Shown in pieces: positions 9,801-44,981 of a DNA stretch of 64,000 nucleotides. Positions within the stretch are counted from its first letter, which is position 1. Each line of letters begins with the position of its first letter. A program made the position numbers and the translations under genes. The DNA lies in NCBI GenBank assembly GCA_038895675.1, contig JAWANB010000001.1:31443-95442 (forward strand), given 5' to 3'. The notes under the pieces were generated by a model. It saw nothing but the letters and a program-made list of their open reading frames with translations. It had not been told where the DNA came from and did no database searches. The stretch comes from Candidatus Iainarchaeum sp. (lineage in GTDB: Archaea > Iainarchaeota > Iainarchaeia > Iainarchaeales > Iainarchaeaceae).

Positions 9801-10165
9801 TAATTTTTTACTGAATAATTGCCAGAAGTCTCAACAAAACTATCGCTTTTTTTTTCAAGCACTCTTACTGCTAAAGGATTGTCTTTTGAAGCTCCATCAA
9901 TACAGTGCAAAGTATATTCATTTATATTCTCTAACCTTAGCTTAGTACCAGGACTAACAACATAAGTTTCTCTTTGAGAATTTTGAAGTGGAATAGCCGA
10001 TGGTGTGAAAGTCATTTGCATTGTTACAGATGGAATAGGTTCGTTGCCAGTATAAGGTTTTGTACCCCAATAATGGCAATGAGACCCACCACAAGTTTGA
10101 ACCCCGAAAGTCAAAGAAGAAAAAACAAAAACAATAATAAAAAAAACAAAGTAATAGGTTCTCAT
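6890..10165 (-). CDS. Giant secreted or surface protein (1091 aa), hypothetical.
   Basis: N-terminal signal/TM segment (MRTYYFVFFIIVFVFSSLTFG). Many N-x-S/T sequons. No C-terminal anchor. Its start overlaps the upstream gene by 4 nt (ATGA). Confidence 0.6.
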   Translation of the reverse strand: MRTYYFVFFIIVFVFSSLTFGVQTCGGSHCHYWGTKPYTGNEPIPSVTMQMTFTPSAIPLQNSQRETYVVSPGTKLRLENINEYTLHCIDGASKDNPLAVRVLEKKSDSFVETSGNYSVKNYEVCRCDGIRNAVVGDKRSFDAYTFNSKGIYTLRIEYQKTTNASEWGLYKEFDVIVGPSDVEVLAPDKSIFGLQKNVYEIENSAEKSMRWEILNKGPLDIKIIGVYDTQCAEGLKQNCSFPDFEAMNNEITIEAGKSYLLLEKFVAKLPRSSPETTKAGLNIKFTDITQKEYDLSFGLKPVDVSVSFRPHAFALFPYRKRGEFVVEGGKEYLIQTCTDSPNNSLYDQPAFTANIFDETGALVATAGFHSISDCTNSNALRLLNSEGGLTRFSVSGAGQKTYYYEVFGIVGIEGSYKSDFVRVNLSSEFDNTTQLLKTENSVLNMSLGPQRIVNSTQQQIVTSKVNAFEGTKPLGFFSPQLSESPDSSSPITYTMTDITITSPEGTFTNPGPVKSFSGGKTEIFVVQNTTQGNQGFNAYAKTAYTENDPRPIKEFDLKLFWIDKERFMIGINSTNVGLCKNLEGSLIRGQQNNFATTGREAMPKVLYDWQPNNITEQTCSNPNNPIVCDSTQFMLSLLKRLQNIEQLASENKLEEANSKTSFNAYLMKDGFSNEFMRDWDEYYSQKFFTLDQSYNTKWKKYFSNPTNLRFSKNNNIELGKQVHEPGIYRVNIIMEFRGSAWEFFDALNNPKAQITINLEKINDLEPNILYMLPFDAELGLQQDGKYLRNGYGLGFKGEKIIISSKSASHSVETRETKSESTPVAWLEITIGKNFIDTQKNTAGNLLNITKKDGEENTYEVYFSPSTPFPAVLLAQPEPNTGFTAVSYSISDTTRGNINTGAYLAKLVESAYKPINAQTQCQDAETRAVLPISIGTDRERESNLTEPWCTFERANIFQKLYGFARQSNATILFETMFYPNSEGLILKNACLSAGKIYLAKLDSRGNIIGFVEIKNNSQYTFEIPTNSVKTFSEAIEQIQEERACIANSSIRQGNTLIPIGTGLWWNESKLVKDLRTKINNIEGIEVNKCYNN

Positions 10166-11892
10166 TCAAACTCACCACTATAAGAATTTCTTTTTCTGAC
10201 TATTAAATAAACGCCTACAATAAAAATGCCTAACCCAATGGCTAAAATCATTAAAACAAAATTATTGTTTTGAACATCTTGCGATTTATCATTAACACTT
10301 ATTATTTTGCCTTCATTTTCGTTGCAAAAACCAAGACAGCACTTAGTGTTATTCACTTCAACGATTGTGCCAGAGCATTCAGCATTACATTCAACAGCAC
10401 CTAAAGCACTACAACTTTGCAGTACTTCTTTTTTTACTGAAATTTTTTCAGATATTTGTGTCCTATTTAAAAAGTCGTCAACTATGTACAAATAATCGCC
10501 TTCTAAAGCTCTCAAATATTCTTGCTTACATGAAACGCCTTCAACTTTAAATGCAGACAATTCAGAGCCAGTACTCAAATCTATTATAGTAAGTTTAGCA
10601 TTCAAATCTTGCTTTTCGTTTTTTTCGTTGAAACCGCATAATTCAAAAAACAATTTTTCGTCTATATCAGAATAGGTTGCCTTTACTTCTACTCTTCCTT
10701 TTGGTGATATGTTTTCTTTTATTGGTTTTACTTCATAACAATAATAATCGTAAATAACGGAATTTTTTTCTATTTTAGCACAAACCAAAAAGTTCTCAAT
10801 ATTTTTTGTAGAAACAAAGTCAAAGTCGAGACTTAAAAATTCGTCATAAAAACCAAGTTTTTCTATTTGTTTTTCTTTTGAAAAAATTTTTTCGGTGCCA
10901 ACAATGGCTTCGATTATTACTTTAAAATCTGAGAAATCAGGGTAAGTATAGTGGTCTGGGCTTGAGCCAATAAGGACTGATAAATAATTGCCTTTAAAAT
11001 CTAATTTCCAAATTCTTGCAGTACCACCCTTTACTATCAATCTGTTTCTGTATAGAGCCAAAAGGTTTCCTTTTTCGTTTTGAATCTCTATTCTAACAGC
11101 ATAAGCACTTGGAATTTCAGGGGCAATTAATTTTAGTTCTATAGATTTTTCAGAATTAGGGCTAATCGTAAATTCTGAATTTACTTCTGAAATAAACTTG
11201 TTTTGTGACAAACAAATTGTGTCATCCCAATCGCACAATTTCACCACAACAATGCCTTTTTGTTCTGACCTTGAAAAGTTTTTTACGAAAACAATACCTT
11301 TGACTTCTTCTTTTGGCATTACTGGAGCACCTATAGGCCCAGCAATTCCATTAAATGTTGTTTTTTCATAATCTATGCTTAAGTCTGGTTTGTTCCCTTT
11401 GCCTAACACTTCAAATTCTAAACTTTTAGGGCTACTAAAAATATGTACAATGCCAACAGCTGGAATTCTTCCATTTTTAAAGTAAGCATCAAGAGTATAA
11501 GTTCCTTTTTTTAAGTCTCTCGGCAAGTCAATTTCAAACTTCACATCGATAATAGCCTTAGGAGGTAAAGCTACTGGAAGTACTTTTTCATAAATTATTG
11601 TGCCTTCCCCGTCTTTTATAACAGAAAATTGCGAAGGATAACTCAAACTATTTTGATTGCCTTTTACGACCTCTAAAACTAAATAGCCGTCATAGAGTGC
11701 AAAATCTTCAAAATTAGTTATTTTTGCTGTTCCTTTCACTTTTTCATTTTCATTGAAAACGTTTTTCTCCAAACTTATTTGCATGTCTATGTTATAATTA
11801 TAAGATGCTAATGACAAATTTAAAAAAAATAATAACATAAAAGCAATTAACACTGGTTTGAAAAAATTTGTAACTCTACTTTTTGAAATCAT
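10162..11892 (-). CDS. Type-I membrane surface protein (576 aa) with a Cys-rich stalk and a C-terminal TM anchor.
   Basis: N-terminal signal sequence. Cys-rich segment CSALGAVECNAECSGTIVEVNNTKCCLGFC. C-terminal TM FVLMILAIGLGIFIVGVYLIVRKR. It overlaps both neighbouring genes. Confidence 0.6.
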   Translation of the reverse strand: MISKSRVTNFFKPVLIAFMLLFFLNLSLASYNYNIDMQISLEKNVFNENEKVKGTAKITNFEDFALYDGYLVLEVVKGNQNSLSYPSQFSVIKDGEGTIIYEKVLPVALPPKAIIDVKFEIDLPRDLKKGTYTLDAYFKNGRIPAVGIVHIFSSPKSLEFEVLGKGNKPDLSIDYEKTTFNGIAGPIGAPVMPKEEVKGIVFVKNFSRSEQKGIVVVKLCDWDDTICLSQNKFISEVNSEFTISPNSEKSIELKLIAPEIPSAYAVRIEIQNEKGNLLALYRNRLIVKGGTARIWKLDFKGNYLSVLIGSSPDHYTYPDFSDFKVIIEAIVGTEKIFSKEKQIEKLGFYDEFLSLDFDFVSTKNIENFLVCAKIEKNSVIYDYYCYEVKPIKENISPKGRVEVKATYSDIDEKLFFELCGFNEKNEKQDLNAKLTIIDLSTGSELSAFKVEGVSCKQEYLRALEGDYLYIVDDFLNRTQISEKISVKKEVLQSCSALGAVECNAECSGTIVEVNNTKCCLGFCNENEGKIISVNDKSQDVQNNNFVLMILAIGLGIFIVGVYLIVRKRNSYSGEFE

Positions 11893-14800
11893 TGACGCTC
11901 ACCAAGAAAAAATTATTTGAAACTCTTATAGGCCTAATATCATAAGTCTGTTCACTGTAAAAATTTTGTGGATTCTTAGTTTCGTTAGTCAAGGTAAAAT
12001 ACAATGATTGATTCAAGTTGTTAGATCCAAGGTCCACTTTCGGATTTTCGTTATCTGAAAAACCAGTATAACACTTGTTTATTACTTTTACAATTTCTTT
12101 TGACTCAGAAAAGTCAAGCAAAACTCTTTTCGTGTTAGTATTATTCACAACTCTTTCAAGGCTTAAGCACGAATTGTTTGTTGTTGCTATTGCAAGTACA
12201 AACCCCAAATAAAATTCTCTTTGATCTTTTTTTGCATTTAAAAATATTGGATGAACTCCCAATTGTTTACCTTGAGTAATGCTCACTACTTCGGTTGCGT
12301 TATTCGATAACGTGAAATTAGTTTTTGAAATACTTATATCGCTTTCAGCGGCTTTTGACAATTTTATTTCCACTTCAGACCCACAATTATCATTTTTTAT
12401 GGTTATATTAACAGGCGTAGCATTACAAGAAGTGCCATTACAATTTCTTGAATTAAGCTCTATTTCAGTATTGGAAGGACTTTGCTCATCAACTTTTATG
12501 CACTCTAAACTAGGTTGAGTTGGTAAAAGAACTTCTTGTTGTGTTACTCTTAATTCTTTTGTTGCGCTAACATAATTATCTTTAGATGCAACAACCTCAA
12601 AAGTAGTTGAAACAGCATAACTTTGTGGAAAAATTATAGTGAATTGTCCTTGGCTATTTGTTTGGCCACCAATATTTAGTTTTGTTTTACTTTCACCTTC
12701 TTTTTCGAATACTTCTATTAATGCACCTTGTAAGGCTCTATTAGCGTTGTCCTTTGTAGTGGCAATGACAATTTCATTAGGCTGTGGTTTTATTGTGTCT
12801 TTATCTAAAGTCAAAAACAACTGGTTTAATGCTGAAATACTAAACAACATTTCTGCTTCTTTTCCTCTTTCTTCAACATTTAAGCTCATTTTTAGTTTTA
12901 TTGAATTAACTGGTTTCAATGCTGTTAATGTTAAGTTTAAAGTAGCTGTTTGATTAGGCGAAAGTCTACCTATTGAACCACTATTTGGAGTTATTTGTAT
13001 TGGGTTAGGATTTATAGTAGGTTCAATAGTGAAAGACATTTGAAGGTTTTCAAAAATTTTTTTAGTAGAATTCAATACTTCTATTGCTATGTCATATTGT
13101 TCATTTTCTCTTAATTCAATAGTTCCTTCGAGTGCATCACGCCATTCTCTAATATGACCATTTTGAGAGGATTTTATTTTAGCACTAATCAAAAATCCAC
13201 AATTACTAGTGCAAAAAGAAGAATTCAAAAAAGTAGTCCACAAGTAAAGCGAATTCCTGTTAGGCTTGTATTCTTCGTTATCGCCTTTCTTGGTTTTAAT
13301 TCCATACCTTAATTCTACTTTAGTGTTATTTTCTTGAGTATCTTCAACTTCCTTTATGAAAACATTAGCAAACACTATGTAGACACCATCATCAGCCGAG
13401 TTCAAAGACAAAATAGCTTGTTTCGCATCATTGTCCGTTGGAGAACAATCCTCATAATTGTTTTGGGGATTAAAGCAAGATGAATAAATAACGTTTAGGT
13501 TTGGTGAATCTATTCTTTTTATAACCATTGTGGAATTGTTTGCATTCAATTGATTTTCTAAGCTCGTCCTAATAACTGCTTTTACGTCGCTTTTTTCCGC
13601 TCTATCTACTATAAGATTAAATTTGAAGACATAGTTTTTGTTATCTTCAAGTCTTGAAACTTCTCTTCCAGAAGTATCTAAAACTTTGTCAAGAAGTATT
13701 TCAGCAGGCTTGAATTGTTGATTTTCAGGAATTGCTTTTAAAACAATTTCTATTGATTGAGTCGCATTAGGCAAAATTCTTACACTAGGATGCCTAGTAG
13801 TATAATAACCTTGTTTGCTAACCACTATCATTGGACTTTTATCTGCTGAAAACTCTTTTTTTTGCGTCCTGCCTTGTGCATTAGTAGTTTCTCTGCCAAT
13901 TTCTCTATTGTTTTCAACAAAAGAAACTGAGGCACCTTGTACAGGCCTATTGCTTTCATCAACGACCTTCACTTCAATAAAGCCATTTGAAATTACCAAA
14001 ACTATTTCTAACTGAATTTCACTACCTTTAGACAAAGATTTTTCTCCTGAAAAATTAGAATGCTCTTTGCCATTAATTTCTTTCAATGCTTTTGCTTTAT
14101 AATTTCCAGGCGGCAAATTAATGAATTCTATTAAGCCGTCTTTGTCTGTAAGTCCATCAGCAATAGGAAAAGAAAAGGCAGAAGAATAAAGAAAAACAGA
14201 AGCGTTTTGAACTTTGTTGCCTCCGTATTCAGAAACTATTACTTTAGCTTTGCCTGAATTATTTGAAGTTACCTTGTCTAACTTTACTATAGTAGGTTGA
14301 TTATTATTTGCAAACTTCAAATTATTAATTACTTTTAGCACATAATTAGGATGCGAAGCTATTACTAAGTATGCTTTTTCTTCTAAGCTAAGATTCTGAA
14401 AGTTGACTATTCCATCATTGTTTGACCTCAAAGAAACACTCTGTCTATTATTGGCTATTAATTGTGCAAAAACATTACTAATAGGATTGTCATTGCTTGA
14501 ATCAACAAATTTGATTAAAATTTTTTTAGCACTGTCTGTTTTTTTCATTCTTATTTCAACAGTATAAGGTTGATTTGAAGAAAATTGAGCATCAGCAATA
14601 GTGAATTCGTCGCTATAAGCAATACCATAAGTACTTCCAGAAGGAGGTCTTGCTTCAATAACATAAGTGCCAGCACTTACGTTTTCTACTATTTTAGAAC
14701 CTGAGTTGTCCGTCGTCCCGCCTTGGAAAGCAATTACTTCTCCTTTCAAGAAAGTCAAGTAAACTCCACTAATTGGCTGAGAAGTATCATGGTCCTTTAC

Positions 14801-15601
14801 TAATACTCTTACATTAGCAAGCAAAATTTCTTTTCTCAAATTCACTATAACAGTCCCTTCAGTAATCGCTAAGTCTATTGTCTTTCTAGTCTCTTCAAAG
14901 CCGCTTGCCCTAACCAAAGCAACCAAAGTTCCGCAAGCAGATTGCACGCTTACCCTATGAATTGCTCCTTTAGAATTAATGTTTGCAGGAACATACTTTG
15001 AATCAGAACAAGAAAAACTAATCGAGACAGAAGTGTTAGAACTAATTAGGCCTTTTTCATCTCTTAACTCATAAACTATTTGCTTGAGTTTTGAACTAAC
15101 AGATTTTTCAAGAGTAATTTTGTATAACTTTCTTGGCTCTATTTTAATTTCTTCTTCAAATGGCTTAAAGCCACTTGCTTTGACAGAAACTTTTGCTTTG
15201 TCCCCAAACAATTTAATTTTTGCTTCACCAAAAGAGTTTGTAGTCATACTTTCCTTAGCACTACCAACTTCAACTATTATTTCAGCGTTTTGAATTGGAT
15301 TTTCAGAATTATCCATTACCACTATTTTTGCACTATTATCTCCTGACCAAAAAGAAAAAAGTGAGGCAATCAGAGACCAAATAGCTTTTGAAATAGGTTC
15401 AAGAGGCCCTCCTTGATTACCAAAAAAAAGCAAAAGAATGAAAAAAAAGAGCAGGAAAACAAAAATTAAAACTAATACAAAAGAAGGAAAAACTCGGTCT
15501 ATTGGGTCAATTATTCTATACACAGGTATTTTTTCGTTAATTTTATCAAGGAATTCGTAATAGCGATCCTCAAAAAAATAATAAAAATCCTTCAATTCCA
15601 T
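11876..15601 (-). CDS. Giant surface protein (1241 aa) with multiple CarboxypepD_reg/transthyretin-like (PEGA-like) beta-sandwich repeats and an N-terminal TM anchor.
   Basis: N-terminal TM (FVLVLIFVFLLFFFILLLFF). Repeated modules of the type AKIVVMDNSENPIQNAEIIVEVG...SFGEAKIKL, KVQNASVFLYSS...DGLTDKDGLIEFINLPPGNYKAKA and VKVVDESNRPVQGASVSFVENNREIGRETTNAQG. Sequons are abundant. Confidence 0.65.
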   Translation of the reverse strand: MELKDFYYFFEDRYYEFLDKINEKIPVYRIIDPIDRVFPSFVLVLIFVFLLFFFILLLFFGNQGGPLEPISKAIWSLIASLFSFWSGDNSAKIVVMDNSENPIQNAEIIVEVGSAKESMTTNSFGEAKIKLFGDKAKVSVKASGFKPFEEEIKIEPRKLYKITLEKSVSSKLKQIVYELRDEKGLISSNTSVSISFSCSDSKYVPANINSKGAIHRVSVQSACGTLVALVRASGFEETRKTIDLAITEGTVIVNLRKEILLANVRVLVKDHDTSQPISGVYLTFLKGEVIAFQGGTTDNSGSKIVENVSAGTYVIEARPPSGSTYGIAYSDEFTIADAQFSSNQPYTVEIRMKKTDSAKKILIKFVDSSNDNPISNVFAQLIANNRQSVSLRSNNDGIVNFQNLSLEEKAYLVIASHPNYVLKVINNLKFANNNQPTIVKLDKVTSNNSGKAKVIVSEYGGNKVQNASVFLYSSAFSFPIADGLTDKDGLIEFINLPPGNYKAKALKEINGKEHSNFSGEKSLSKGSEIQLEIVLVISNGFIEVKVVDESNRPVQGASVSFVENNREIGRETTNAQGRTQKKEFSADKSPMIVVSKQGYYTTRHPSVRILPNATQSIEIVLKAIPENQQFKPAEILLDKVLDTSGREVSRLEDNKNYVFKFNLIVDRAEKSDVKAVIRTSLENQLNANNSTMVIKRIDSPNLNVIYSSCFNPQNNYEDCSPTDNDAKQAILSLNSADDGVYIVFANVFIKEVEDTQENNTKVELRYGIKTKKGDNEEYKPNRNSLYLWTTFLNSSFCTSNCGFLISAKIKSSQNGHIREWRDALEGTIELRENEQYDIAIEVLNSTKKIFENLQMSFTIEPTINPNPIQITPNSGSIGRLSPNQTATLNLTLTALKPVNSIKLKMSLNVEERGKEAEMLFSISALNQLFLTLDKDTIKPQPNEIVIATTKDNANRALQGALIEVFEKEGESKTKLNIGGQTNSQGQFTIIFPQSYAVSTTFEVVASKDNYVSATKELRVTQQEVLLPTQPSLECIKVDEQSPSNTEIELNSRNCNGTSCNATPVNITIKNDNCGSEVEIKLSKAAESDISISKTNFTLSNNATEVVSITQGKQLGVHPIFLNAKKDQREFYLGFVLAIATTNNSCLSLERVVNNTNTKRVLLDFSESKEIVKVINKCYTGFSDNENPKVDLGSNNLNQSLYFTLTNETKNPQNFYSEQTYDIRPIRVSNNFFLVSVNDFKK

Positions 15602-15643: not shown

Positions 15644-16756
15644 TTAAATATTACTAACTTCCCAAACCAAAGACTCTAAAATTTTCTTTATACTCAACTT
15701 TCTGACAAATAAGCAAGAGTCTGACGCTCCACCAAACACTAACAACTCGTCACTCGAGCCTTGTAAAGCAGAAGTAGGAAAAACAACATTGCTTACAAAA
15801 CCAGTTTTTTCAAAAGCTTGTTTCGGAGTAAAAAGAGGCTTGTTTTCAGGAGACCTTGCTATTATTTTTTTCATTTTTTTGTCGAAGACAACAGCACCAG
15901 CACTATAAACCTTGTATTCTTCACCTTTTTTTCTAACTAATTTTACGCCATGATAAATTTCAAGCCAACCCTCTTTGATTCTTATTGGCACAGTTCCAGA
16001 CCCGATTCTTAAGCTATCCCAACCTTTTTTTCTAGGCCCCATTATGGGCCTTTCTTTTCCCCAAAAAATCAAGTCTTTAGAAAAAGAAATCCAAATACGG
16101 GGCTTGTCAAAAATCATAGTGCCCTCAGGCCTGTGCAAGGCAACGTAATAACCATTTATTTTTTCAGGCAAAATAACAACGTCCTTGTTTTGTTGCCTGA
16201 ATATTATGCCATGCCTTTTCCACGTCTCAAGGTTATGAGAAGTAGCAAGAGAAGTTGAAACACCAGAGCACATAGACACAGACACGTAAGTCATAACAAA
16301 TTTTTTTTCGTCTTTGAGAAAAGTAATGCGAGGATCTTCAACCCCAAAATCGCCATCATCTTTCAAACCAAAAAAATCTGGTTTTTGAGATATTGACAAA
16401 ACTTTTGTACCTGTTTCATCTAAAAGAATTTTTCTAAAATGAGAGATGGTAGGCAACCTTGCTTTTTCAGAATCAAAAATAAAATAGTTGTCTAAAGACT
16501 GAAATTTTCCTTTTTTTCTCGGCAAAGTTTCAACAATAATTTTCAATTCTTTATTTCCAACGAACCTTGGAGCCAAAAAATATTTTTCGCCATGCAAAGG
16601 CGTTTCGGCAATTCGTGCAAAAAGCAATATTTTGTTATCTTTTAGCCTAACCGCAGCAGGATTAAAAACACCCCTAACTCTAAAATTTTTTAACGTTGGA
16701 TTAATAGACGTAGGGCTTAAAATCAATGTAGATTTAGTCATGAAATGAAAACACAA
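15644..16756 (-). CDS. Glycoside hydrolase family 130 (beta-mannoside phosphorylase-like, DUF377).
   Basis: GVFNPAAV, FGVEDPRITFL, WLEIYHGVK and GFVSNVVFP are GH130 five-bladed beta-propeller signatures. Confidence 0.7.
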   Translation of the reverse strand: MCFHFMTKSTLILSPTSINPTLKNFRVRGVFNPAAVRLKDNKILLFARIAETPLHGEKYFLAPRFVGNKELKIIVETLPRKKGKFQSLDNYFIFDSEKARLPTISHFRKILLDETGTKVLSISQKPDFFGLKDDGDFGVEDPRITFLKDEKKFVMTYVSVSMCSGVSTSLATSHNLETWKRHGIIFRQQNKDVVILPEKINGYYVALHRPEGTMIFDKPRIWISFSKDLIFWGKERPIMGPRKKGWDSLRIGSGTVPIRIKEGWLEIYHGVKLVRKKGEEYKVYSAGAVVFDKKMKKIIARSPENKPLFTPKQAFEKTGFVSNVVFPTSALQGSSDELLVFGGASDSCLFVRKLSIKKILESLVWEVSNI

Positions 16757-16787
16757 AACCTAAATAAAAATCTAACGAAAATTTTTA

Positions 16788-18977
16788 TTACAAAATCTTA
16801 GAAATCATCATTCGAGCCAACAAATAAGTCACAGTTGCCTCTGCGCCTTCGTTAGCATTAACACCATTTTTTGTCAAACCGTCAAAACAACCGCCAGTAG
16901 CTTCATCATAAACCATGAGATTTGAAGTGTTTTTTCCTAAATACCAATCAAAAGAAGACCTTGCTTTAATTGCGTATTCTTTATTTCCAGTCTTCTGAAA
17001 AGCTCTAATATACGCGGTAGTCATTACACTAGCTTCTATTGGCTGCTGATCAAAATGAGACCTCTCTAAGTCTTTTACAAACCATTTTTCCTGTCCAATA
17101 GGAACTAACTTGCCACCTATAAACAAAGTCTTAGTCAAAAAGTTCAAAGATTCTTCAGCAACCTTTAAAGCTAAACCTGTTTTATCATAGTTATCTGCAA
17201 TAAATAAAGCCTCTGGAATGCTCCCATTTGCATAAGTCAAAGATTCCTCAAACCAGTTCCAGTCAACATTAGAAACTTCGTTGTACTTGCTAATCAAAGA
17301 CTCAACAAGTTTTTCTCTCATACCATTTCCAAACATGCCATTTACTTGTGACAATCCAATTAAAGAGTAAGCCTCAGCTCTAGTAGACTCTAACTCTAAC
17401 CCAAAATCAATAGTCTTTTCAAGCATATGCTTAGCCTTAAGCTTAAGTTCGTCAGGCAAATTAGAGTCAAGAACATGGCCTAAAGCCCAAATAGCTCTAC
17501 CTTGAGAATCTTCACTACCAACATCATCCAAAAATTCTCTATTTTCATCCACGAAATTATGAAACTTACCATCTTGCATTTGGCAATAATCTAAAAAATT
17601 TAAGAAAATATTTGAAAGCCTGAGCATCTTTTTTGAACCAAACTTAGAATAAGTGTCAGCAGCAACAACCAAAGCACGAGCATTGTCATCAAGAGTATAA
17701 CCACTATTTATGTCAGGCTCAGAATAATTACAAAATTGTATAATACCGAAGTCGTCAGTTAACTTGTAAAAATGCTTGAAATTCAATGGAGGAAGTCTTC
17801 CAAAAGAGCAATCCTCAATATTAGAAATTTCTTTCAACATGCCAAAATAAGAATTTGCAACATTAGGCCAAGTCATTTTTCTGCTAAACTCAAAAACGTT
17901 TTTTGAAAAATTTAAACTCATTTGCTGATTGTCCAAAAACTTACAAATAGCATTTGCAAAATAACCAGGTTTATTTTGCCTTACCACGATACCTCTATTT
18001 TCAGCCAACATTTCCTTATTATACCTAGTAAAAGAAGCAACTATTGGCTTTCCAGCACCCATTGCATAACTAACAGTCCCACTACAAATCTGATTTTTAT
18101 CTAATGCTGGGGCAACATAAACATCACAAAGTTCAAGAAATTCAATGATTTCATTCAAAGACAAAAACTTATCAATAAACTTTACTTTTCCAATAAGATT
18201 ATTTTCCTGAACCAAAGATTTCAAATAGTCTCTATATTCTTCTCCAAAAATCTTTCTTACTTTAGGATGAGTCTCGCCCAAAACCAAATAAATGGCATTT
18301 GGATGCTTTTCAAGTATTTTAGGCATGGCTAAAATTATGTTTTCAACCCCTTTACCTTTACTCAAAAGACCAAAAGTAAGCAAAACTTTTTTATCGGTCA
18401 AATCATACTTTCTTCTAAGTTTTTCCTTGTTTTGAAAAACCATAGAAGGGACTCCATGATAAATGACCTCTATTTTAGAGCCGTCTATTTTGTAGTTCTT
18501 TTCAAGCAACTCTTTAGCAGTGTTGGTCATGACAACTATTTTCTCACTATACTCAGATATGCCTCTCACAACTTGCTTCATTTCTGACTTTGGATTCTTA
18601 AGCACAGTGTGCATTGTAGTAATCATTTTTTTGTTTGTTAATTCCATGAATCTCAACAAATGGCTACCGAATTTGCCACCAAAAAGTCCGAATTCATGTT
18701 GAATATTAACTAAACCAATGTTTTGCATTTTGTTTATTTTCTTAGCTGCCTTTTCATAACTCTCCAATTCTTGTTCAACAAAACTACCAATGACTCTTTT
18801 ATCATAATCACGTAATATGTGAGAATCTTCGTTTATACAAAAAACCTTAGGAACTAAAATCATTCCAAATTTTTTTTGCAAAGCATCGCACAAATTTTTA
18901 GTAAAAGTAGCAATACCACATTCTCTTGGCGGATAACTTGAAACCATTAGTATTTTTTTAGGGTACTCACCCATCAA
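16788..18977 (-). CDS. Fusion protein: N-terminal GT4 glycosyltransferase plus a C-terminal six-hairpin (amylo-alpha-1,6-glucosidase/GDE_C-like) domain.
   Basis: N-terminal half has GT4 features (KILMVSSYPPRECGIATFTKNL...GETHPK...KFIDKFLSLNEIIEF...APALDKNQICSGTVSYAMGAGKPIV). C-terminal half (about 350 aa) has LDDNARALVVAAD...GRAIWALGHVL, like the WxRD-type (alpha/alpha)6 glycosidases. Confidence 0.6.
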   Translation of the reverse strand: MMGEYPKKILMVSSYPPRECGIATFTKNLCDALQKKFGMILVPKVFCINEDSHILRDYDKRVIGSFVEQELESYEKAAKKINKMQNIGLVNIQHEFGLFGGKFGSHLLRFMELTNKKMITTMHTVLKNPKSEMKQVVRGISEYSEKIVVMTNTAKELLEKNYKIDGSKIEVIYHGVPSMVFQNKEKLRRKYDLTDKKVLLTFGLLSKGKGVENIILAMPKILEKHPNAIYLVLGETHPKVRKIFGEEYRDYLKSLVQENNLIGKVKFIDKFLSLNEIIEFLELCDVYVAPALDKNQICSGTVSYAMGAGKPIVASFTRYNKEMLAENRGIVVRQNKPGYFANAICKFLDNQQMSLNFSKNVFEFSRKMTWPNVANSYFGMLKEISNIEDCSFGRLPPLNFKHFYKLTDDFGIIQFCNYSEPDINSGYTLDDNARALVVAADTYSKFGSKKMLRLSNIFLNFLDYCQMQDGKFHNFVDENREFLDDVGSEDSQGRAIWALGHVLDSNLPDELKLKAKHMLEKTIDFGLELESTRAEAYSLIGLSQVNGMFGNGMREKLVESLISKYNEVSNVDWNWFEESLTYANGSIPEALFIADNYDKTGLALKVAEESLNFLTKTLFIGGKLVPIGQEKWFVKDLERSHFDQQPIEASVMTTAYIRAFQKTGNKEYAIKARSSFDWYLGKNTSNLMVYDEATGGCFDGLTKNGVNANEGAEATVTYLLARMMISKIL

Positions 18978-19021
18978 TTCACCACAAAAAAAGACTATTA
19001 TATCTAAATTGCTGCAACTAA

Positions 19022-20605
19022 TTAATTAATGTTTCTTTTCCAAGCTTCACTATCCACTATGAAATTACAGTTTTTATGAAGTCTCAAAAAAGACGCAGGC
19101 ACTTTGTCAGAAATTTTTCCAAACAATGCTTTTTTCACAGCAAAAGATTTTTCTTTACCAGAAGCTAACAAAACAATTTTTTTAGCAGAAAGTATTGTTC
19201 CTATTCCCAAAGTAATAACTTTTCTTTTCTCTTTTCCAATAAAAGTAAAAGCAACTCTTGTCTTAGAATTTGCCTTTGAGCCAGGCTCGTTAAAAGCAAT
19301 ATGCCCATTTTTTCCTATGCCTAACAAAACAAAGTCTAAACCATGAGTTCTAACAAACTTTTCAACACTCTTAGCCTGACTTTTAGCCATGCTTAAATTA
19401 CCGCTGAAAAAAAATTCTTTCCGAAATTTTTTTGTGCCAACAAGTTGGTTCTTAATGAAAAACTTAAAAGAATCTTTTTCACTTTTTAAATCTAAATACT
19501 CGTCAAGTTGTATTATAGTAGATTTTGAAAAGTCAAGTTTAGAATCCTTAACCATATTATAAGCCAAGATTGGCGTGTTGCCAGCAGCAAAACAAAAAAC
19601 AGAATCTGGTTTTAAGGCTAATTGTAAAGCTATTTCTTCAAAAGCCACTTTTGACAGTTCTTGATAATCCTTACACAAAATTATATTAATTTTTTCAGTT
19701 TTTTTTAAAAACTTCAAAACTTTTCTTTCACTAATTTTTACTAAAGATATTCTTTGAGAAGCAACAAAATTACCTATTTTTAAACAAACTTTTTCATTGA
19801 AATCGTTTATAAGCCCATAAACAAAACCAGCATTAAAGAAGTCCCCAGCTCCTGTAGTGTTTATTGCCTTTACTTTATTAGCTTTTTCAAAAATTTTTTT
19901 TGAATTAGTAAAAAAAGCAGCACCTTTGCTACCTCTTTTCAAAATTACACGTTTAGCATCATTCTTAAGCAAAAATTTTATGCCTTGATGCAAGCTTTTA
20001 TTACCTGTAATTTTTTCGAATTCACGTTCGTCTAAAAAAAAGTAATCTACTAAACCAAGAAAAGATACGTCCCAAGTATTATACTCATCATAAGTAGCAT
20101 CGAAAGCAATTATTACACCTCTTTGTTTAAAATTTTTTAACAATTTTTTGAAATCTTTATGAAGACCTTTTAAATGATAATAACCGCCAAAAAAAATCCA
20201 GTCGCCTTTTTTTATTTTTTTACCGATTTTTTGCCAAACCATTTTTGAAGTCAGTTTTAACATACAGCCTTTGCTTGAAACTATTGCCCTTTCGCCATCA
20301 TTTCTAACAAAAATGTTTGATATGCCATTTTTTTCATTGAACACAAAAAAATTCTTTTTTATTTTTTTGTCGCTTAATTCTTTATCTATAAATTCTTTGA
20401 AAACGTCTTTTCCAATTGCACTAACCAATTCGACTTCTATGCCAAGAGAAGCCATGGCTACAGCAAAATTTGCTGCATTACCACCTATTGAAACTGAAAA
20501 ACTATTTGCTTTATGCTCTTCTCCAAAAACTAAATTTTTTGAATAATAAGTGAAAAAATCAACATTAGTATCTCCCACAACAAAAATTTTTTTCTTATGA
20601 CTCAT
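19022..20605 (-). CDS. Fusion protein: PfkB/ribokinase-family sugar kinase (N-terminal) plus glucosamine-6-phosphate deaminase/isomerase NagB-family domain (C-terminal).
   Basis: N-terminal: IFVVGDTNVDFF...GGNAANFAVAMASLG...TTGAGDFFNAGFVYGL (PfkB anion hole). C-terminal: FCFAAGNTPILAY...LDEYLDL...DFVLLGIGKNGHIAFNEPGS (NagB/6-phosphogluconolactonase fold). Confidence 0.7.
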   Translation of the reverse strand: MSHKKKIFVVGDTNVDFFTYYSKNLVFGEEHKANSFSVSIGGNAANFAVAMASLGIEVELVSAIGKDVFKEFIDKELSDKKIKKNFFVFNEKNGISNIFVRNDGERAIVSSKGCMLKLTSKMVWQKIGKKIKKGDWIFFGGYYHLKGLHKDFKKLLKNFKQRGVIIAFDATYDEYNTWDVSFLGLVDYFFLDEREFEKITGNKSLHQGIKFLLKNDAKRVILKRGSKGAAFFTNSKKIFEKANKVKAINTTGAGDFFNAGFVYGLINDFNEKVCLKIGNFVASQRISLVKISERKVLKFLKKTEKINIILCKDYQELSKVAFEEIALQLALKPDSVFCFAAGNTPILAYNMVKDSKLDFSKSTIIQLDEYLDLKSEKDSFKFFIKNQLVGTKKFRKEFFFSGNLSMAKSQAKSVEKFVRTHGLDFVLLGIGKNGHIAFNEPGSKANSKTRVAFTFIGKEKRKVITLGIGTILSAKKIVLLASGKEKSFAVKKALFGKISDKVPASFLRLHKNCNFIVDSEAWKRNIN

Positions 20606-20656
20606 GCTAAATAGTAGAGTGTATAATATTTAATTTTTGTCATTCAATATGACACT

Positions 20657-21235
20657 ATGGTAAAAGCCATTAGTATTGTTGCCCATCCTGATGATGAAAC
20701 TATTTGGATGGGTGGAAAAATTTTAAGAGAAAAAAATTGGAGTTGGGTAATATTGTCTCTATGTAGAAAGGACGATCCTGACAGAGCACCTAAGTTTTTT
20801 AGAGTATGCAAAGCTCTTAATGCCAAAGGATTTATTTCAGATTTGGATGACGAAAATCCAGAAAAAGATTTAAGTTTAGATGAAGTGGTAAAAAGAATAG
20901 AGCCAATAGTTCATGACAAAAAATTTGATTTTGTTTTTACTCATGGCAAAAATGGCGAGTATGGACATAAAAGGCACATAGAAGTTCACAATGCAGTTAT
21001 AGAAATGTATAAAAGTGGATTACTAAAATTAAAAAATTTGCTTTGCTTTAACTATAAAAGGAACGAAAATCCTTTTATGTGCCTTCCTAACGAAGATGCA
21101 CAAGAAAAGCTTGAACTTACTGATAGTGAATTTCGAGAAAAACAAAGGCTGGTTCATGAAGTTTATGGTTTTAGGAAAGATATTTTTGAGTACTTGAGTT
21201 GTTCTAAAACAGAAACTTTTCAGAAGGTAGTGTGA
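20657..21235 (+). CDS. PIG-L/LmbE-family N-acetylglucosaminyl deacetylase.
   Basis: AISIVAHPDDETIWMGG...VFTHGKNGEYGHKRH matches the PIG-L zinc-deacetylase motifs. The stop overlaps the next gene's start (ATGA). Confidence 0.75.
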   Translation: MVKAISIVAHPDDETIWMGGKILREKNWSWVILSLCRKDDPDRAPKFFRVCKALNAKGFISDLDDENPEKDLSLDEVVKRIEPIVHDKKFDFVFTHGKNGEYGHKRHIEVHNAVIEMYKSGLLKLKNLLCFNYKRNENPFMCLPNEDAQEKLELTDSEFREKQRLVHEVYGFRKDIFEYLSCSKTETFQKVV

Positions 21236-22389
21236 TGTCTAACTCGAAATTTTCGGCTGCAGTATTATACCCTTATCCTCTTGAAATGGACGGCGTAAGT
21301 CTCCAAGGTTATTATCTTGCAAAAGGTTTAGCACACCATGGTTATAAAGTATATCAAGCTAATAGGCGAGCTCGCTTTGAAAAAGAATTTATTTACAAAC
21401 ATTATAAACCGAATTTTGCTATAGGCATAGGTTTTTGGGGAGACTTACCGCAATTGTCAAGGTATACACAAAAATATGATATAACCTTGATACCTTGGCT
21501 TAATGCAGATGGATGGGTCGCGAATTATCATGAAACAATAGAATCATTACCTCTAGTTTTTACTACAAGCAATTGGGTAAAAGAAACTTATATTAGAGAT
21601 GGTTTATCAGGAAAAAACCTTGTTCCAATGCCAATAGGTATTGACACGGAAGAAATGAAACCAATACCTAAAGACGACCCAAGAGTAATTTCAATGAGAA
21701 AACTATTAGGAGTAAAAGAAGACGAAATAATGATATTGACGGCAGGCGGAGACGTTACAAGCAAAGGCTTTCAAGAAGTATTAAAAGCATTAGGAAAAAT
21801 AAATGGCAAGTACCCAAAATGGCGCTATGTAGGTAAAAGTTGGGAAAGTTATTATCCAACTTACCATTATCGTGATGAATTAGAAATAATAAAAAAATTT
21901 GGTTTTGAAAACAAAATAGAGTACATTGATGGTAATGTTTCTAGAGAAACATTCAACGTTCTTTTAAGCGCAGCAGATATTTATGCGGCACCAAGCAGGA
22001 TAGAAGGCTTTGGCATGATACAAGTAGAGGCAATGGCTTGCGGTATCCCAGTACTATCAATTGATGCAGGCGGTATAAAAGACACTATAATCCATAATAA
22101 AACAGGTTTTCTTGCTAAAGTTTCAGAGACAATAGACTTGGATCAAGAGTGGGTTTACCCTGAAATGGGTTTTGAAAAAAAGCAAATAATCAAGTTTGAC
22201 AAACCAAAAACATTTGCTTATAGAGCAGACGTAGATGAATTAGCAGAATATCTTCTAAAATTAATGGAAAACCCAGATTTAAGAAAAAAAATGGGTGAAA
22301 ATGGTAGAAAACACGCTGTAGAAAACTTTGATTACAAAGTAACTTCCTTAAAAATGGCAAAAATAATAGAAAAAACTTTTAACCTATAA
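21232..22389 (+). CDS. GT4-family glycosyltransferase (PIG-A/BshA-like retaining GT).
   Basis: C-terminal GT4 signature YAAPSRIEGFGMIQVEAMACGIPVLSIDAGGIKDTIIHNKTGFLA. Translationally coupled to the PIG-L gene. Confidence 0.75.
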   Translation: MMSNSKFSAAVLYPYPLEMDGVSLQGYYLAKGLAHHGYKVYQANRRARFEKEFIYKHYKPNFAIGIGFWGDLPQLSRYTQKYDITLIPWLNADGWVANYHETIESLPLVFTTSNWVKETYIRDGLSGKNLVPMPIGIDTEEMKPIPKDDPRVISMRKLLGVKEDEIMILTAGGDVTSKGFQEVLKALGKINGKYPKWRYVGKSWESYYPTYHYRDELEIIKKFGFENKIEYIDGNVSRETFNVLLSAADIYAAPSRIEGFGMIQVEAMACGIPVLSIDAGGIKDTIIHNKTGFLAKVSETIDLDQEWVYPEMGFEKKQIIKFDKPKTFAYRADVDELAEYLLKLMENPDLRKKMGENGRKHAVENFDYKVTSLKMAKIIEKTFNL

Positions 22390-22391: not shown

Positions 22392-23573
22392 TTACAAAAA
22401 TTCATATATTCCGACACTAGGCTTACTTGTCTTTGAAAGTCTTTTAACATACCTTGTTTCTTGTTTTTCTTTTTCAAACCTTACTTTTTTTCCAACCAAA
22501 ATTTTTTTACCACAAACATACAACGCGTTATTTTTTCCTAAAGCACAATAAAACTTGCCAATTTTAGGCTTGTATTTTACCATTTTTGAATTTTTTAAAA
22601 GCGCAATAACATTTTTTGCTACTACCTTTGATTGGTCAACAGCATTTTGAGCAGTTTTCTGAATGCTTTCATTTTCCACTATACAAGCACAATCACCTAA
22701 ACCAAAAATAAAAGGATAAGTAGTACATTGCATAAAACTATTTACTAATAAGCCACCTCCAGGAGCGCCTCTTTCACCAAGCATTCCAGAGTAAGGAAGC
22801 GAGCTCTCTATTATTAGATCGTGAGTCCTTATGCCTCCAGCCCAAATTAGCGTATCACAACTAAACTCACTTCCGTCTCTACTAATAACTTTCTTATTAA
22901 AAATTTTCTTTGTATAAAAATTGCATACTACATCAATACTTGCTTTACTTAAATAATCAAGGACTAAAGAAGAAGCCTTGTCTGGCAGATTTGGCAAAAT
23001 TCTATTTGGACCATGCAAAATAGTTACTCTAAAGTTTTTTCTATTAAATCCGTTTTTTGCACATACAATATCAAGATGATCTTTCAAAGTAGTTGCTAAT
23101 TCTATTCCAGTTAGACCTGCACCACAAACAACAAAGTCATGTGGCTCATTTTTTTCAACACAATTTGAAATTCTCTCAAAAAGCTTTTCAGCGTCTTCTT
23201 TACTTTTCAACGCAAAAGCCTTTTCTTTTCCTTCTATGCCTGAATAATTGGTCAAAGCTCCAATTGCTAAAATAAGTACATCAAAACTAATTTTTTCAGA
23301 ATTTTTGGTTATAACAAACTTTTCTTTTGGCAAAATTTTTTTTACGGAATCATGGTAATAAACTATCTTGTACTTTTTTAATAAAGAAGGAATTAATAGA
23401 CAAGTGTCAGCCTCTGAAAGTTCTCCTGCCGCAACTTCATAAAGCAAAGGCGAAAAAGTAAAGCAGTCATCATCACTAACTAAAATTATTTCATTTTTTG
23501 ACAAATATTGCCTAAGTCTTAGAGCTGTTTCTATACCAGCAAAGCCTCCTCCTAAAATCAATATTTTTTGCAT
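22392..23573 (-). CDS. FAD-dependent pyridine-nucleotide oxidoreductase, type-II NADH dehydrogenase (NDH-2)-like.
   Basis: Two dinucleotide-binding motifs (ILILGGGFAGIE and VVCGAGLTGIELA) and a C-terminal GLGDCA. About 393 aa. Confidence 0.65.
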   Translation of the reverse strand: MQKILILGGGFAGIETALRLRQYLSKNEIILVSDDDCFTFSPLLYEVAAGELSEADTCLLIPSLLKKYKIVYYHDSVKKILPKEKFVITKNSEKISFDVLILAIGALTNYSGIEGKEKAFALKSKEDAEKLFERISNCVEKNEPHDFVVCGAGLTGIELATTLKDHLDIVCAKNGFNRKNFRVTILHGPNRILPNLPDKASSLVLDYLSKASIDVVCNFYTKKIFNKKVISRDGSEFSCDTLIWAGGIRTHDLIIESSLPYSGMLGERGAPGGGLLVNSFMQCTTYPFIFGLGDCACIVENESIQKTAQNAVDQSKVVAKNVIALLKNSKMVKYKPKIGKFYCALGKNNALYVCGKKILVGKKVRFEKEKQETRYVKRLSKTSKPSVGIYEFL

Positions 23574-28120: not shown

Positions 28121-29416
28121 CTATCTCCAATTTATTTTCAAAAAATGTGAAGCACAACTAAAACAAGGGTCATAAGCTCTAATCAATCTCTCTAATTCCA
28201 ACCTAACTTTTTCCTTGCCTTGGTCAAGATAAAGCGGTATTAGTTCTTTCAAATCATGCTCCATGTTTATTTGGTTTTGTTGACTTGGCGTACATATTTC
28301 AGCGTGTTTAATTATTCCTTTCTCGTCAATTTCAACCATGTAATAAAGCAATCCTCTCGGAGCTTCTATTGCTCCAATTCCTTTTCCACCAATCTTTTTT
28401 GGCAAAGGCTTTTCTTCTTGCTTGAACTCTAACGATTCCAGTAAATCTATTGAACTATCAATGCAATGAACTATTTCAATCGCTTGAGCCAAATTATTGT
28501 GAAAGACATCGTGAGAAGGAAAACAAGACAAAAATTTTGAACAATCTTTTTTAGTCTTCTTATTCAAAGAACCTCTATTCAAATTAAGCCTACTCAACGC
28601 ACCAACCCTATACCTTTGTCCTTCAAACTTAAAACCAGTGCTTTGAGAATAAGGAAGTATTACCCTTTCAACGTGGTTCCAATAATGTTTTTCAGGAATA
28701 CAATAACCTTCACTACTAATTATTTCACCACTCAAAAAATCAAAGTCTTCAGAACCAAGACAAACATAGTTTGAAGGACTCTCAAAATTTAATTCTTTTT
28801 CATAAAAAAGCTCTACTAAGTCTATTACTTTATCTCTTACTTCCAACAATTTTTTAGAAACTTCTTTCATAGATGACTTTTCAGGTAATTTTGCATAACT
28901 GCCAATCATAGCAAACATTCCATGAACAGCCCTTCCTAAGACAAGAGTTGACAAAGAATTGCCACTTGCTTTAACATCAAAACAATCTTTAATCCATTTC
29001 TCATCTTTGCCTTCAAGCTCTAATATAGAGTCTTTACCAAAAAGGTCAGGCAAAGAAAAAAGGTACAAGTGCATTGCATGATCCCTAATATTTAAACCAT
29101 ACATGGTTAATTTTCGCAAAAGTATTGTTTGCTCACTAGGTTCAATGGCTAACGCATTTTCGAAAGCTTCAATCGAACAATTAAGATGCGCAATACTACA
29201 AGTACCACAAATTCTTGAAACTAATTGTGGGACAGAATTGTAATGCTTACCTCTTATTGCTTGAGTATAAAACCTCTTATTTTCGTTGACTTTAAGCTTT
29301 AAATCTTCTACCTTGCTATTTCTTACTTTTATGTCCAGTTCTGCATGGCCTTCTATCTTAGAAATAGGGTCTATTACTAAGTCAAAGTCATGGTCATGTT
29401 CAAGCGAGCCGTGCAT
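28121..29416 (-). CDS. [NiFe]-hydrogenase large subunit (group 3-like).
   Basis: N-terminal L1 motif RICGTCSIAH and C-terminal L2 motif DPCFSCASH, followed by a short extension (FLKINWR) for proteolytic maturation. The track ORF starts 20 codons upstream. A Met at 29414-29416 abuts the small-subunit stop. Confidence 0.85.
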   Translation of the reverse strand: MHGSLEHDHDFDLVIDPISKIEGHAELDIKVRNSKVEDLKLKVNENKRFYTQAIRGKHYNSVPQLVSRICGTCSIAHLNCSIEAFENALAIEPSEQTILLRKLTMYGLNIRDHAMHLYLFSLPDLFGKDSILELEGKDEKWIKDCFDVKASGNSLSTLVLGRAVHGMFAMIGSYAKLPEKSSMKEVSKKLLEVRDKVIDLVELFYEKELNFESPSNYVCLGSEDFDFLSGEIISSEGYCIPEKHYWNHVERVILPYSQSTGFKFEGQRYRVGALSRLNLNRGSLNKKTKKDCSKFLSCFPSHDVFHNNLAQAIEIVHCIDSSIDLLESLEFKQEEKPLPKKIGGKGIGAIEAPRGLLYYMVEIDEKGIIKHAEICTPSQQNQINMEHDLKELIPLYLDQGKEKVRLELERLIRAYDPCFSCASHFLKINWR

Positions 29417-29417
29417 T

Positions 29418-32163: not shown

Positions 32164-32245
32164 GATACGATAATATTACTACAAAACTAAAAATCTTGTG
32201 CAAAAGCATTATTCTTTATTAATTCTTTTTCTTATGTGTTTTCTA

Positions 32246-41678: not shown

Positions 41679-41684
41679 GAATTT

Positions 41685-43040: not shown

Positions 43041-43084
43041 ACTTAATTCAATTTAAAAAATCAACTATAAAAGTAAAAAAAAAG

Positions 43085-43867: not shown

Positions 43868-43883
43868 TTAAAACCACTAAAAC

Positions 43884-44855: not shown

Positions 44856-44981
44856 TTAATCACCTAAAAAATTAAATGACATTTATTTAAAAATCTCACA
44901 CTATTTAAATGCAATTTTTGCAACTTAAACATTTTTACAATTAAGTTTAAAATTGCCTTGCTATTTTATGGTTTTGGTCTT

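Follow-up and report, generated by a model that had tools for sequence, protein, structure and literature searches.

We describe a group of sugar-metabolism genes in a 64,000-nucleotide stretch (hereafter the window) of contig JAWANB010000001.1 from Candidatus Iainarchaeum sp., an archaeon of the DPANN lineage Diapherotrites. An initial annotation had treated five consecutive genes as a single glycan-metabolism island, namely those for a GH130 glycoside phosphorylase, a GT4 glycosyltransferase fused to a six-hairpin domain, a PfkB kinase fused to a NagB deaminase, a PIG-L/LmbE-family de-N-acetylase and a second GT4 (GT4b below), and had noted a stand-alone glycosidase gene of the GDE_C type at some distance. 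All six open reading frames (ORFs) were present where they had been placed, the GH130, PfkB-NagB, PIG-L and GT4b assignments were confirmed by Pfam (Table 1), and an island devoted to glycan metabolism was supported, the clustering of its genes being far beyond chance. Rather than one five-gene unit, the island is composed of two evolutionarily separable modules. Module A (GH130 and the GT4-barrel fusion) is a member of a very widespread, unstudied gene partnership, which is joined in DPANN archaea and in bacteria of the candidate phyla radiation (CPR) to a glucosaminide module, module B (PfkB-NagB, PIG-L, GT4b and the GDE_C-like gene). We read the locus, at a probability of roughly 45%, as an intact cytoplasmic sugar-turnover island, in which the two conserved modules stand back to back around a 51-bp spacer. 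Such an island would make and break down a beta-mannoside-containing glycan and an alpha-glucosaminide within the cell, and would pass mannose 1-phosphate (Man-1-P) and fructose 6-phosphate to glycolysis.

The fusion of the GT4 and barrel domains, which had been regarded as unusual, is the most frequent arrangement within a large family and hence not unusual. Scanning one genome per species yielded at least 575 loci, of which 80 were kept and supplemented with five metagenome loci, among which a near-identical copy of the window (L001) was counted. A single open frame encoded both GT4 and barrel in 69 of the resulting 85 loci, which come from archaea and bacteria; 13 others had two adjacent separate genes instead. 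At least 8000 homologues of the fusion were found in the database search, of which the best 120 are 688-799 amino acids (aa) long, cover 94-100% of the query and derive from DPANN archaea and bacteria. When the barrel alone was searched against 1.84 billion cluster representatives, 3544 proteins were matched at E<=1e-3 and 704 at E<=1e-30; among the best 150 matches, 87 were no longer than 470 aa (stand-alone barrels or fragments) and 53 were longer than 650 aa. The AlphaFold2 model of the full-length fusion attained a pLDDT of 91.2 and a pTM of 0.87, a confidence consistent with a fixed two-domain unit. A Foldseek comparison of this model with the PDB found no solved structure covering both domains.

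Joined genes in a metagenomic assembly may raise the suspicion that frameshifts or misassembly merged two neighbours. The near-identical public contig L001 indeed carries disrupted genes in the same region, and the GT4 and barrel genes are split in the 13 loci mentioned above. Nevertheless, the ORFs of the window are continuous, 69 independent loci and thousands of ~730-aa database proteins share the GT4-barrel fusion, the PfkB-NagB fusion occurs in ~38 protein clusters from independent assemblies, and the model of the whole GT4-barrel protein is confident. Because both fusions recur in independent assemblies, an artefactual origin is already refuted, and we assign it a negligible probability.

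The C-terminal domain of the fusion (residues 386-729) was described in the initial annotation as a six-hairpin glycosidase domain related to GDE_C and GH63, with the stand-alone gene as its paralogue. The six-hairpin part of this description stands, as does the fusion to a GT4, for the C-domain does fold as an (alpha/alpha)6 barrel. The kinship to GDE_C was rejected: no Pfam match was obtained for these residues even at E<10, BLASTP detected no similarity between the barrel and the stand-alone GDE_C-like protein (E=1.1), and hhalign gave a probability of 0.5% when a profile of 37 members of the barrel family was compared with one of 25 GDE_C-like relatives. The C-domain belongs instead to a YPO2471-like (alpha/alpha)6 family, as is evident from similarity in both sequence and structure and from common motifs; the sequence profile retrieved PDB entry 7tem (YPO2471) at E 2.6e-21 with the DDxAR, YxN and D..N.N.GAEST motifs aligned. 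Numbered along the full-length protein, the invariant residues of the barrel are D430, D431, N432, R434, N474, W573, W575, E577, Y582, N584, Q644, Q645, D699, N707, N709 and E713. They include five carboxylates (D430, D431, E577, D699 and E713), which cannot be aligned by sequence with the GH63/GDE families. In the model, the invariant residues lie at the N-termini of alternate helices, which, judging from topology, would correspond to the usual catalytic face of (alpha/alpha)6 enzymes. The nearest characterised fold is that of the AGE superfamily (cellobiose and N-acylglucosamine 2-epimerases, YihS), whose members rely on two catalytic barrel histidines; GH130 is also known to have cellobiose 2-epimerase as a partner. 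As the barrel proper contains no invariant histidine, which argues against AGE-type epimerase chemistry, we rejected this assignment as well.

The GT4 domain of the fusion matched Pfam Glycos_transf_1 over residues ~1-383, and its best Foldseek matches were MshA, GlgM, sucrose-phosphate synthase (SPS), PimB' and BshA (E 1e-17 to 1e-13 for MshA, SPS, PimB' and BshA). In place of the EX7E motif, the domain carries Q296-X7-Y304, and the same replacement was found in 116 of 120 close homologues and in 44 of 53 long representatives. The phosphate loop reads FGLLSKGKG where GRxxxxKG is usual. The donor chemistry of this domain may be atypical, and the QX7Y motif leaves room for a sugar-1-phosphate donor or for activity as a phosphorylase. 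We also considered a role in defence because of a weak Pfam match to 'GT4-conflict'; this was rejected, as PADLOC gave no match for the six proteins submitted.

The partner of the fusion in module A is a GH130 protein, the closest solved relatives of which are the beta-1,2-mannobiose phosphorylase Lin0857 (5e-44) and Uhgb_MS (9e-43), both of them GH130_4 enzymes, followed by Teth514_1788/1789. Relative to Uhgb_MS, the window GH130 keeps D141, R143, R209 and H269, which make up the phosphorylase signature of a catalytic Asp and phosphate-binding Arg/His residues, and its E140 and K191 align with E136 and K184 of Uhgb_MS. This E/K(R) pair in subsite +1 is the determinant of beta-1,2/1,3 specificity (subfamilies GH130_4, GH130_6 and GH130_13), the beta-1,4 enzymes having Arg/Tyr instead (Ladeveze et al., PMC12814180). 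Among 75 partner GH130 proteins, E140, D141 and R209 were invariant, while K or R at position 191 and H269 were each retained in 74. The window GH130 fell short of the NCBIfam equivalog models (238.5 bits against 550 for NF050092, 163 against 450 for NF052550). From these signature residues, we predict it to be a beta-1,2(/1,3)-mannoside phosphorylase.

A tblastn search with the window proteins detected GH130 in 67 of the 85 loci. Its distance from the GT4-barrel gene was no more than 500 bp in 41 of them and no more than 5 kb in 63, and several of the loci without a GH130 lie on truncated contigs. When all neighbouring ORFs were clustered without supervision, the picture was similar, with GH130 in 63 of 83 loci and the next families in 16, 11 and 10. 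GH130 is therefore the only broadly recurrent partner of the GT4-barrel gene, across many phyla, and no transporter, membrane-spanning or lipid-synthesis gene was conserved beside either module in this clustering. The residue conservation described above indicates that the partnership is specifically one between the GT4-barrel protein and a phosphorylase-type GH130 of the beta-1,2/1,3 type.

Several loci departed from the simple pair. 'Long' GH130 proteins of 490-532 aa, with an N-terminal extension of ~260-300 aa lacking a Pfam match, were found in L044 (7344-8933), L065 (15494-16966), L045 (4201-5784) and L046 (10980-12578). A 1188-aa GH130 in L040 (11024-14590) was considered as a triple fusion of GH130 with GT4 and barrel and rejected, its ~890 N-terminal residues having no Pfam match. 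In three Woesearchaeota loci (L020, 11199-12068; L058, 11861-12694; L009, 16893-17816), the GT4-barrel gene is adjoined by three kinases, of the GHMP (most like the anomeric kinases of the HddA/fucokinase type), ROK and PfkB families; the GHMP kinase could make a manno-configured sugar-1-phosphate.

Module B is likewise held together by recurrent linkage. GT4b, which bears the canonical EX7E motif (RIEGFGMIQVEAM), has SPS Tll1590, PimB', ManT and BshA as its closest solved relatives and adjoins PIG-L in every other locus examined. PIG-L itself possesses the metal-site motifs VAHPDDE and HKRH (HxxH). The GDE_C-like protein matched Pfam GDE_C (67.2 bits), GH100 (56.3 bits) and, weakly, MGH1-like (40.7 bits), and its closest solved relatives are the GH100 invertases InvB and InvA (1e-8). 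Its gene adjoins GT4b/PIG-L in L002, L004, L090, L091 and other loci. As the protein bears no similarity to the fusion C-domain, the stand-alone gene is tied to the PIG-L, GT4b and NagB genes and not to that domain; through them it does belong functionally with the island. The trio of PIG-L, GT4b and GDE_C stands beside module A in two other loci of Diapherotrites (L002, L006). It was also found in archaeal metagenome-assembled genomes (MAGs) that are unclassified and DPANN-like (L007, L086 and the P0351 locus), in a Woesearchaeota MAG (L058), in CPR bacteria (L004, L019, L021), in a Spirochaetaceae MAG (L044) and in a Bacteroidota MAG (L065). In L090 and L091, the trio occurs with no module A within 7 kb. 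The long GH130 is the first gene of the PIG-L-GT4b-GDE_C operon in L044 and L065.

The PfkB-NagB fusion has a narrow distribution, ~38 protein clusters, all from DPANN archaea. Its PfkB match covers residues 5-286, and the ribokinase model gave 135 bits against a cut-off of 300, too low for a substrate to be assigned. The NagB half occupies residues ~307-522 (Pfam Glucosamine_iso at 330-508), matches Bacillus subtilis NagB (2bkv) at 1.2e-35 and keeps the catalytic motifs LDEY and GIGKNGHIAFNEPG (pattern G-x-G-x-[DN]-G-H-x-x-F-N-E-P), with 152 bits against the NagB subfamily cut-off of 326 in NCBIfam. Elsewhere, relatives of NagB are fused to GDE_C (P0176, P0177 and P0356; 596-599 aa, archaeal contigs), to PIG-L (many 633-aa proteins of Bacteroidota) or to ROK kinases, and these fusions of NagB to GDE_C, PIG-L and kinases support module B as a unit. 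One ROK-NagB fusion, P0179, was set aside as genomic context, since it belongs to an ordinary bacterial NagA/NagB/kinase locus. In L086, the genes are ordered as NagB-GDE_C (P0176, 8001-9791), then GT4b, PIG-L and GT4-barrel, then PfkB, and the cluster sits among genes for GAPDH, PGK, TIM, a DeoC-type aldolase, a ROK kinase and a PMI-type cupin.

We propose the following scheme of turnover, with presumed donors, acceptors, linkage types and direction of flux. In module A, the GT4 domain would act in the cytoplasm to build a glycoside or oligomer with alpha linkage, the barrel pocket, with its invariant Asp-Asp, Glu, Asp and Glu, would cut, trim or transglycosylate this product, and GH130 would reversibly add or remove beta-linked mannose by means of Man-1-P and inorganic phosphate (Pi). 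Because GH130 is reversible with Man-1-P/Pi, the energy of the glycosidic bond would be conserved when the glycan is consumed. In module B, GT4b would transfer N-acetylglucosamine (GlcNAc) from a nucleotide sugar to an acceptor X, PIG-L would deacetylate the product to glucosamine (GlcN)-alpha-X following the logic of MshA/MshB and BshA/BshB, the GDE_C/GH100-like hydrolase would free GlcN, and PfkB-NagB would convert it through GlcN-6-P to fructose 6-phosphate and ammonia. When the translations were read by eye, no N-terminal hydrophobic segment was visible in the fusion, the GDE_C-like protein or PIG-L, which suggests a cytoplasmic location. Since the long GH130 heads the module B operon in L044 and L065, the two modules may act on one mixed glycan.

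Several observations weigh against this proposal. Its weak point is chemical: GT4 enzymes are retaining and GH130 is inverting on beta-mannosides, so the two cannot handle the same bond, which leaves the scheme short of a chemical link between them. As both glutamates of EX7E have been lost, any use of a nucleotide sugar by the fusion GT4 may depart from the norm. Genes for GDP-mannose or UDP-GlcNAc synthesis, an HAD phosphatase and PMI were absent from the window (PGI, GHMP and ROK genes were also sought there and not found), and every NCBIfam equivalog cut-off was missed by the island proteins.

Neither module appeared to be characterised in the literature searched, and the systems closest to them differ in instructive ways. 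Cyclic beta-1,2-glucan synthase (Cgs) combines a GT84 transferase, an (alpha/alpha)6 cyclisation domain and a GH94 phosphorylase; all three families differ from those of the window (GT4, YPO2471-like barrel and GH130), the window phosphorylase is a separate protein, and the retaining GT4 cannot itself make a beta-mannoside. The same three components as in module A are found in Teth514_1785-1789 of Thermoanaerobacter sp. X-514, namely GH130, GT4 (Teth514_1786) and the barrel (Teth514_1785, 'hypothetical') (Chiku et al. 2014, PMC4264767). Locus L023 of our set, from a Thermoanaerobacter genome, comprises genes for a glycosidase, two GH130 proteins, a Man-1-P nucleotidyltransferase, a GT4 (391 aa) and a barrel protein (349 aa), and corresponds to the published Teth514_1790-1785 cluster; its barrel is 40% identical to that of the window. 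Only the two GH130 enzymes of this cluster have been characterised, as beta-1,2-mannobiose and beta-1,2-oligomannan phosphorylases (PMC4264767). The GT4 and barrel genes are separate in Thermoanaerobacter and fused in the window; the former has two short GH130_6 proteins, whereas the latter has a single 370-aa GH130 nearest to GH130_4 enzymes; and the ABC importer, glycosidase and Man-1-P guanylyltransferase of the Thermoanaerobacter cluster are all absent here. The orthologous operon Teth514_1785-1787 was reported to be induced under 6% ethanol in an ethanol-adapted strain of Thermoanaerobacter sp. X514 (PMC3751872), a hint of a stress response of the GT4/barrel pair.

The mycobacterial methylmannose polysaccharide system offers the best precedent for cooperation between a cytoplasmic GT4 and an (alpha/alpha)6 hydrolase: the GT4 ManT is accompanied there by the (alpha/alpha)6 endo-mannosidase MmpH (D47, D50, E262), a hydrolase that recycles the polymer (PMC9883506). 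It differs in that MmpH has no detectable sequence homology to the window barrel, the mycobacterial proteins are separate, their system has no GH130 phosphorylase, and the island has no methyltransferases. For module B, the first two steps in the synthesis of mycothiol (MshA/MshB) and bacillithiol (BshA/BshB) provide a parallel, in which a PIG-L-family deacetylase acts after a GT4 GlcNAc transferase to yield a GlcN-glycoside (PMC7278568). This order is common to module B, and weak NCBIfam matches to BshA, MshA and MshB were obtained, far below the equivalog cut-offs; by contrast, the cysteine ligase (MshC/BshC) was not found here, and the window pair is linked to a GDE_C/GH100-like hydrolase and NagB. 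A sucrose-type cycle (GT4 SPS, GH100 neutral invertase and PfkB fructokinase) offers another comparison, because GT4b is nearest to SPS Tll1590, the hydrolase is nearest to GH100 invertases and a PfkB is present. CPR versions carry an HAD-IIB phosphatase, whereas the window has no phosphatase; unlike in the sucrose cycle, PIG-L and NagB point to an amino sugar, and the SPS model of NCBIfam scored 28 bits against a cut-off of 576.

The alternative that we regard as a serious rival, albeit an unlikely one, is catabolic salvage, in which glycans scavenged from a host or the environment, such as beta-mannosyl or GlcNAc oligosaccharides, would be broken down. GH130 would then release Man-1-P, PIG-L, the kinase and NagB would lead from GlcNAc to fructose 6-phosphate, the barrel and the GDE_C-like protein would be glycosidases, and the QX7Y GT4 would be a retaining glycoside phosphorylase and not a synthase. 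The set of PIG-L, kinase and deaminase fits the logic of the archaeal chitin route, which we take to be that of Dac and GlmD in Thermococcus kodakarensis. In DPANN loci, ROK, GHMP (HddA/fucokinase-like) and PfkB kinases and glycolytic genes stand beside module A, and the loss of both EX7E glutamates from the fusion GT4 would suit a phosphorylase. Phosphorylases do exist within GT4, but the trehalose phosphorylases of fungi are the only ones known so far (PMC8950772). The Thermoanaerobacter cluster, with its ABC importer and glycosidase, was read as salvage by its authors (PMC4264767), which favours catabolism of imported sugar and counts against the turnover island that we prefer. On the other hand, no transporter is conserved beside either module, and GT4b, with both the canonical EX7E motif for nucleotide sugars and translational coupling to PIG-L, shows the arrangement of the biosynthetic pairs MshA/MshB and BshA/BshB (PMC7278568).

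The initial annotation had likened the island to compatible-solute systems of the glucosylglycerate or mannosylglycerate type, with a GT4 synthase and a GDE_C/GH63-like hydrolase on one polypeptide. In several solute systems, a glycosyltransferase does stand beside (alpha/alpha)6 hydrolases, and the weak MGH1-like match of the stand-alone gene is in keeping with this. To our knowledge, however, the synthases of these solutes belong to GT55, GT78 or GT81 and none to GT4; the window encodes no GT55, GT78 or GT81 synthase, its candidate domains being GT4 only, and no MPGP/GpgP-type (HAD) phosphatase. The NCBIfam glucosylglycerate hydrolase model gave 26 bits against a cut-off of 550, and a synthase fused to a hydrolase of its own product would be futile. 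Even with the reported induction of the Thermoanaerobacter orthologues Teth514_1785-1787 under ethanol stress (PMC3751872), we consider this specific solute system very unlikely; the general idea of a small cytoplasmic glycoside that is made and broken down is possible. The initial annotation was thus largely right in what it observed and largely wrong in its specific interpretation (GDE_C paralogue, solute enzyme of this type, unusual fusion). Equally improbable in our view is the synthesis of an envelope glycoconjugate, in which GT4b and PIG-L would act like PIG-A and PIG-L to produce a GlcN-inositol-lipid or another GlcN-glycolipid, the GT4 fusion and GH130 would then add mannose, and the hydrolases and NagB would only recycle. 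PIG-A is a GT4 enzyme, PIG-L is named after the deacetylase of GPI (glycosylphosphatidylinositol) synthesis, PimA/PimB' among the structural matches are GT4 enzymes, and both GT4s of the island had weak NCBIfam matches to a GlcNAc-phosphatidylglycerol synthase model. Yet no membrane-spanning or lipid-synthesis gene is conserved nearby, the tight links go to NagB, sugar kinases, glycolytic genes and soluble glycosidases, and the translated proteins that were read show no N-terminal hydrophobic segment.

A bolder version of the turnover reading, which we hold to be rather improbable, is that the QX7Y GT4-barrel protein and GH130 are the widespread prokaryotic counterpart of the mannogen cycle of Leishmania, maintaining an intracellular beta-1,2-mannoside reserve or solute. 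The Leishmania mannogen cycle, with its GT108 dual mannosyltransferase/phosphorylases, and bifunctional GH130_4/_6 enzymes (PMC12814180) likewise involve intracellular synthesis and phosphorolysis of beta-1,2-mannosides by enzymes of the GH130 fold, and the window GH130 keeps the +1-subsite pair and the phosphate ligands of these enzymes; no GT4 or barrel partner, by contrast, has been described for them. If such a cycle operates, the GT4-barrel protein would prime the chain and set its length, possibly from Man-1-P instead of a nucleotide sugar, and GH130 would extend and phosphorolyse it, coupled in DPANN and CPR organisms to the glucosaminide module. The physiological substrate of the prokaryotic beta-1,2-mannoside phosphorylases is stated to be unknown (PMC4264767, PMC12814180); the proposed cycle, if true, would supply this long-sought substrate and establish a new CAZy family of hydrolases or transglycosylases.

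The arrangement of the island genes is given in Table 1. The gaps between GH130, the fusion and PfkB-NagB on the minus strand are 31 and 44 bp, and on the plus strand the stop codon of PIG-L overlaps the start of GT4b, so that the two are translationally coupled. The 51-bp spacer between the two transcription units presumably has a promoter function. Unrelated genes (oxidoreductase, methylase, DUF63, Trm5 and MsrB), ~4.5 kb in all, separate the GDE_C-like gene from the other genes of module B. The G+C content of the window is ~32%.

Table 1. Features of the two modules in the window.
Feature	Position	Strand	Remarks
GH130 glycoside phosphorylase, 370 aa	15644..16756	-	Module A; ORF list and Pfam GH130 (PF04041), 150.5 bits (cut-off 26)
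GT4-barrel fusion, 729 aa	16788..18977	-	Module A; one continuous frame
GT4 (GT-B) domain of the fusion, residues 1-385	17823..18977	-	Pfam Glycos_transf_1, 76.6 bits (cut-off 26.4)
(alpha/alpha)6 barrel domain of the fusion, residues 386-729 and stop	16788..17822	-	YPO2471-like family, without Pfam model
PfkB-NagB fusion, 527 aa	19022..20605	-	Module B; Pfam PfkB, 158 bits; Glucosamine_iso, 64.7 bits (cut-off 27)
Divergent intergenic spacer, 51 bp, AT-rich	20606..20656		Between two transcription units; contains TATAATATTTAA
PIG-L/LmbE-family de-N-acetylase, 192 aa	20657..21235	+	Module B; Pfam PIG-L, 44.2 bits (cut-off 28.2)
Second GT4 (GT4b), 385 aa	21232..22389	+	Module B; Pfam Glycos_transf_1, 101 bits
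GDE_C/GH100-like (alpha/alpha)6 glycosidase, 372 aa	26963..28081	-	Module B; displaced third member

The fusion protein is 100% identical to a 728-aa protein (P0001) on a 58-kb contig from a 'Candidatus Diapherotrites archaeon' MAG, which is 99.4-99.8% identical to the window over two aligned blocks; the true start of the fusion is likely the ATG at 18974. In the public near-copy L001 (JAWAGW010000005.1), GH130 was called as two ORFs of 250 and 109 aa (7927-9015), and a Pyr_redox_2 gene, which is intact in the window (22392-23573), was divided into three ORFs (1133-2276). GH130 is intact in the window as well, and the disruptions in the public copy probably reflect errors of sequencing or assembly or else pseudogenes of that strain.

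Directly downstream of GH130 on the minus strand (6890-15601), we noticed three very large ORFs (1091, 576 and 1241 aa). The last of them contains CarboxypepD_reg, Big_1, SpaA and SdrD-type Ig-like repeats, and no precomputed Pfam match was available for the near-identical L001 copies of the other two; all three are probably surface or adhesion proteins of the DPANN cell. The ORF adjoining the GDE_C-like gene (28121-29476) partially matches the large subunit of NiFe-hydrogenases (Pfam NiFeSe_Hases, 85 bits, in two stretches). At 32198-33798, the stop codon of an adenylate kinase gene overlaps the start codon of the next gene, which encodes a second, stand-alone PfkB kinase (301 aa). A run of folate and purine genes at 40815-51741 encodes FolD, serine hydroxymethyltransferase (SHMT), SAICAR synthetase, adenylosuccinate synthetase, AIR carboxylase, AICARFT/IMPCH and an AIR synthase-related protein, and is notable for a DPANN genome because many DPANN archaea lack purine synthesis.

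If the biochemistry of the island turns out to be mundane, the value of these findings lies mainly in the correction of annotation, the GT4-barrel protein being currently annotated merely as 'glycosyltransferase family 4'. The barrel represents a sizeable, unstudied family: it counts ~3500 representatives at 50% identity, Pfam has no model for it, and its one crystal structure is an orphan. The near-universal partnership with the GT4-barrel protein gives a concrete hypothesis for the role of the prokaryotic beta-1,2-mannoside phosphorylases (GH130_4/_6), and the module is carried by culturable bacteria, including Thermoanaerobacter, Pedobacter, Mucilaginibacter and Flavobacterium. The main value of the present analysis is that the physiological role of these phosphorylases becomes experimentally approachable. 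In DPANN archaea and CPR bacteria, the mannoside and glucosaminide modules together would constitute a conserved route for carbon and nitrogen in reduced genomes, feeding into glycolysis.

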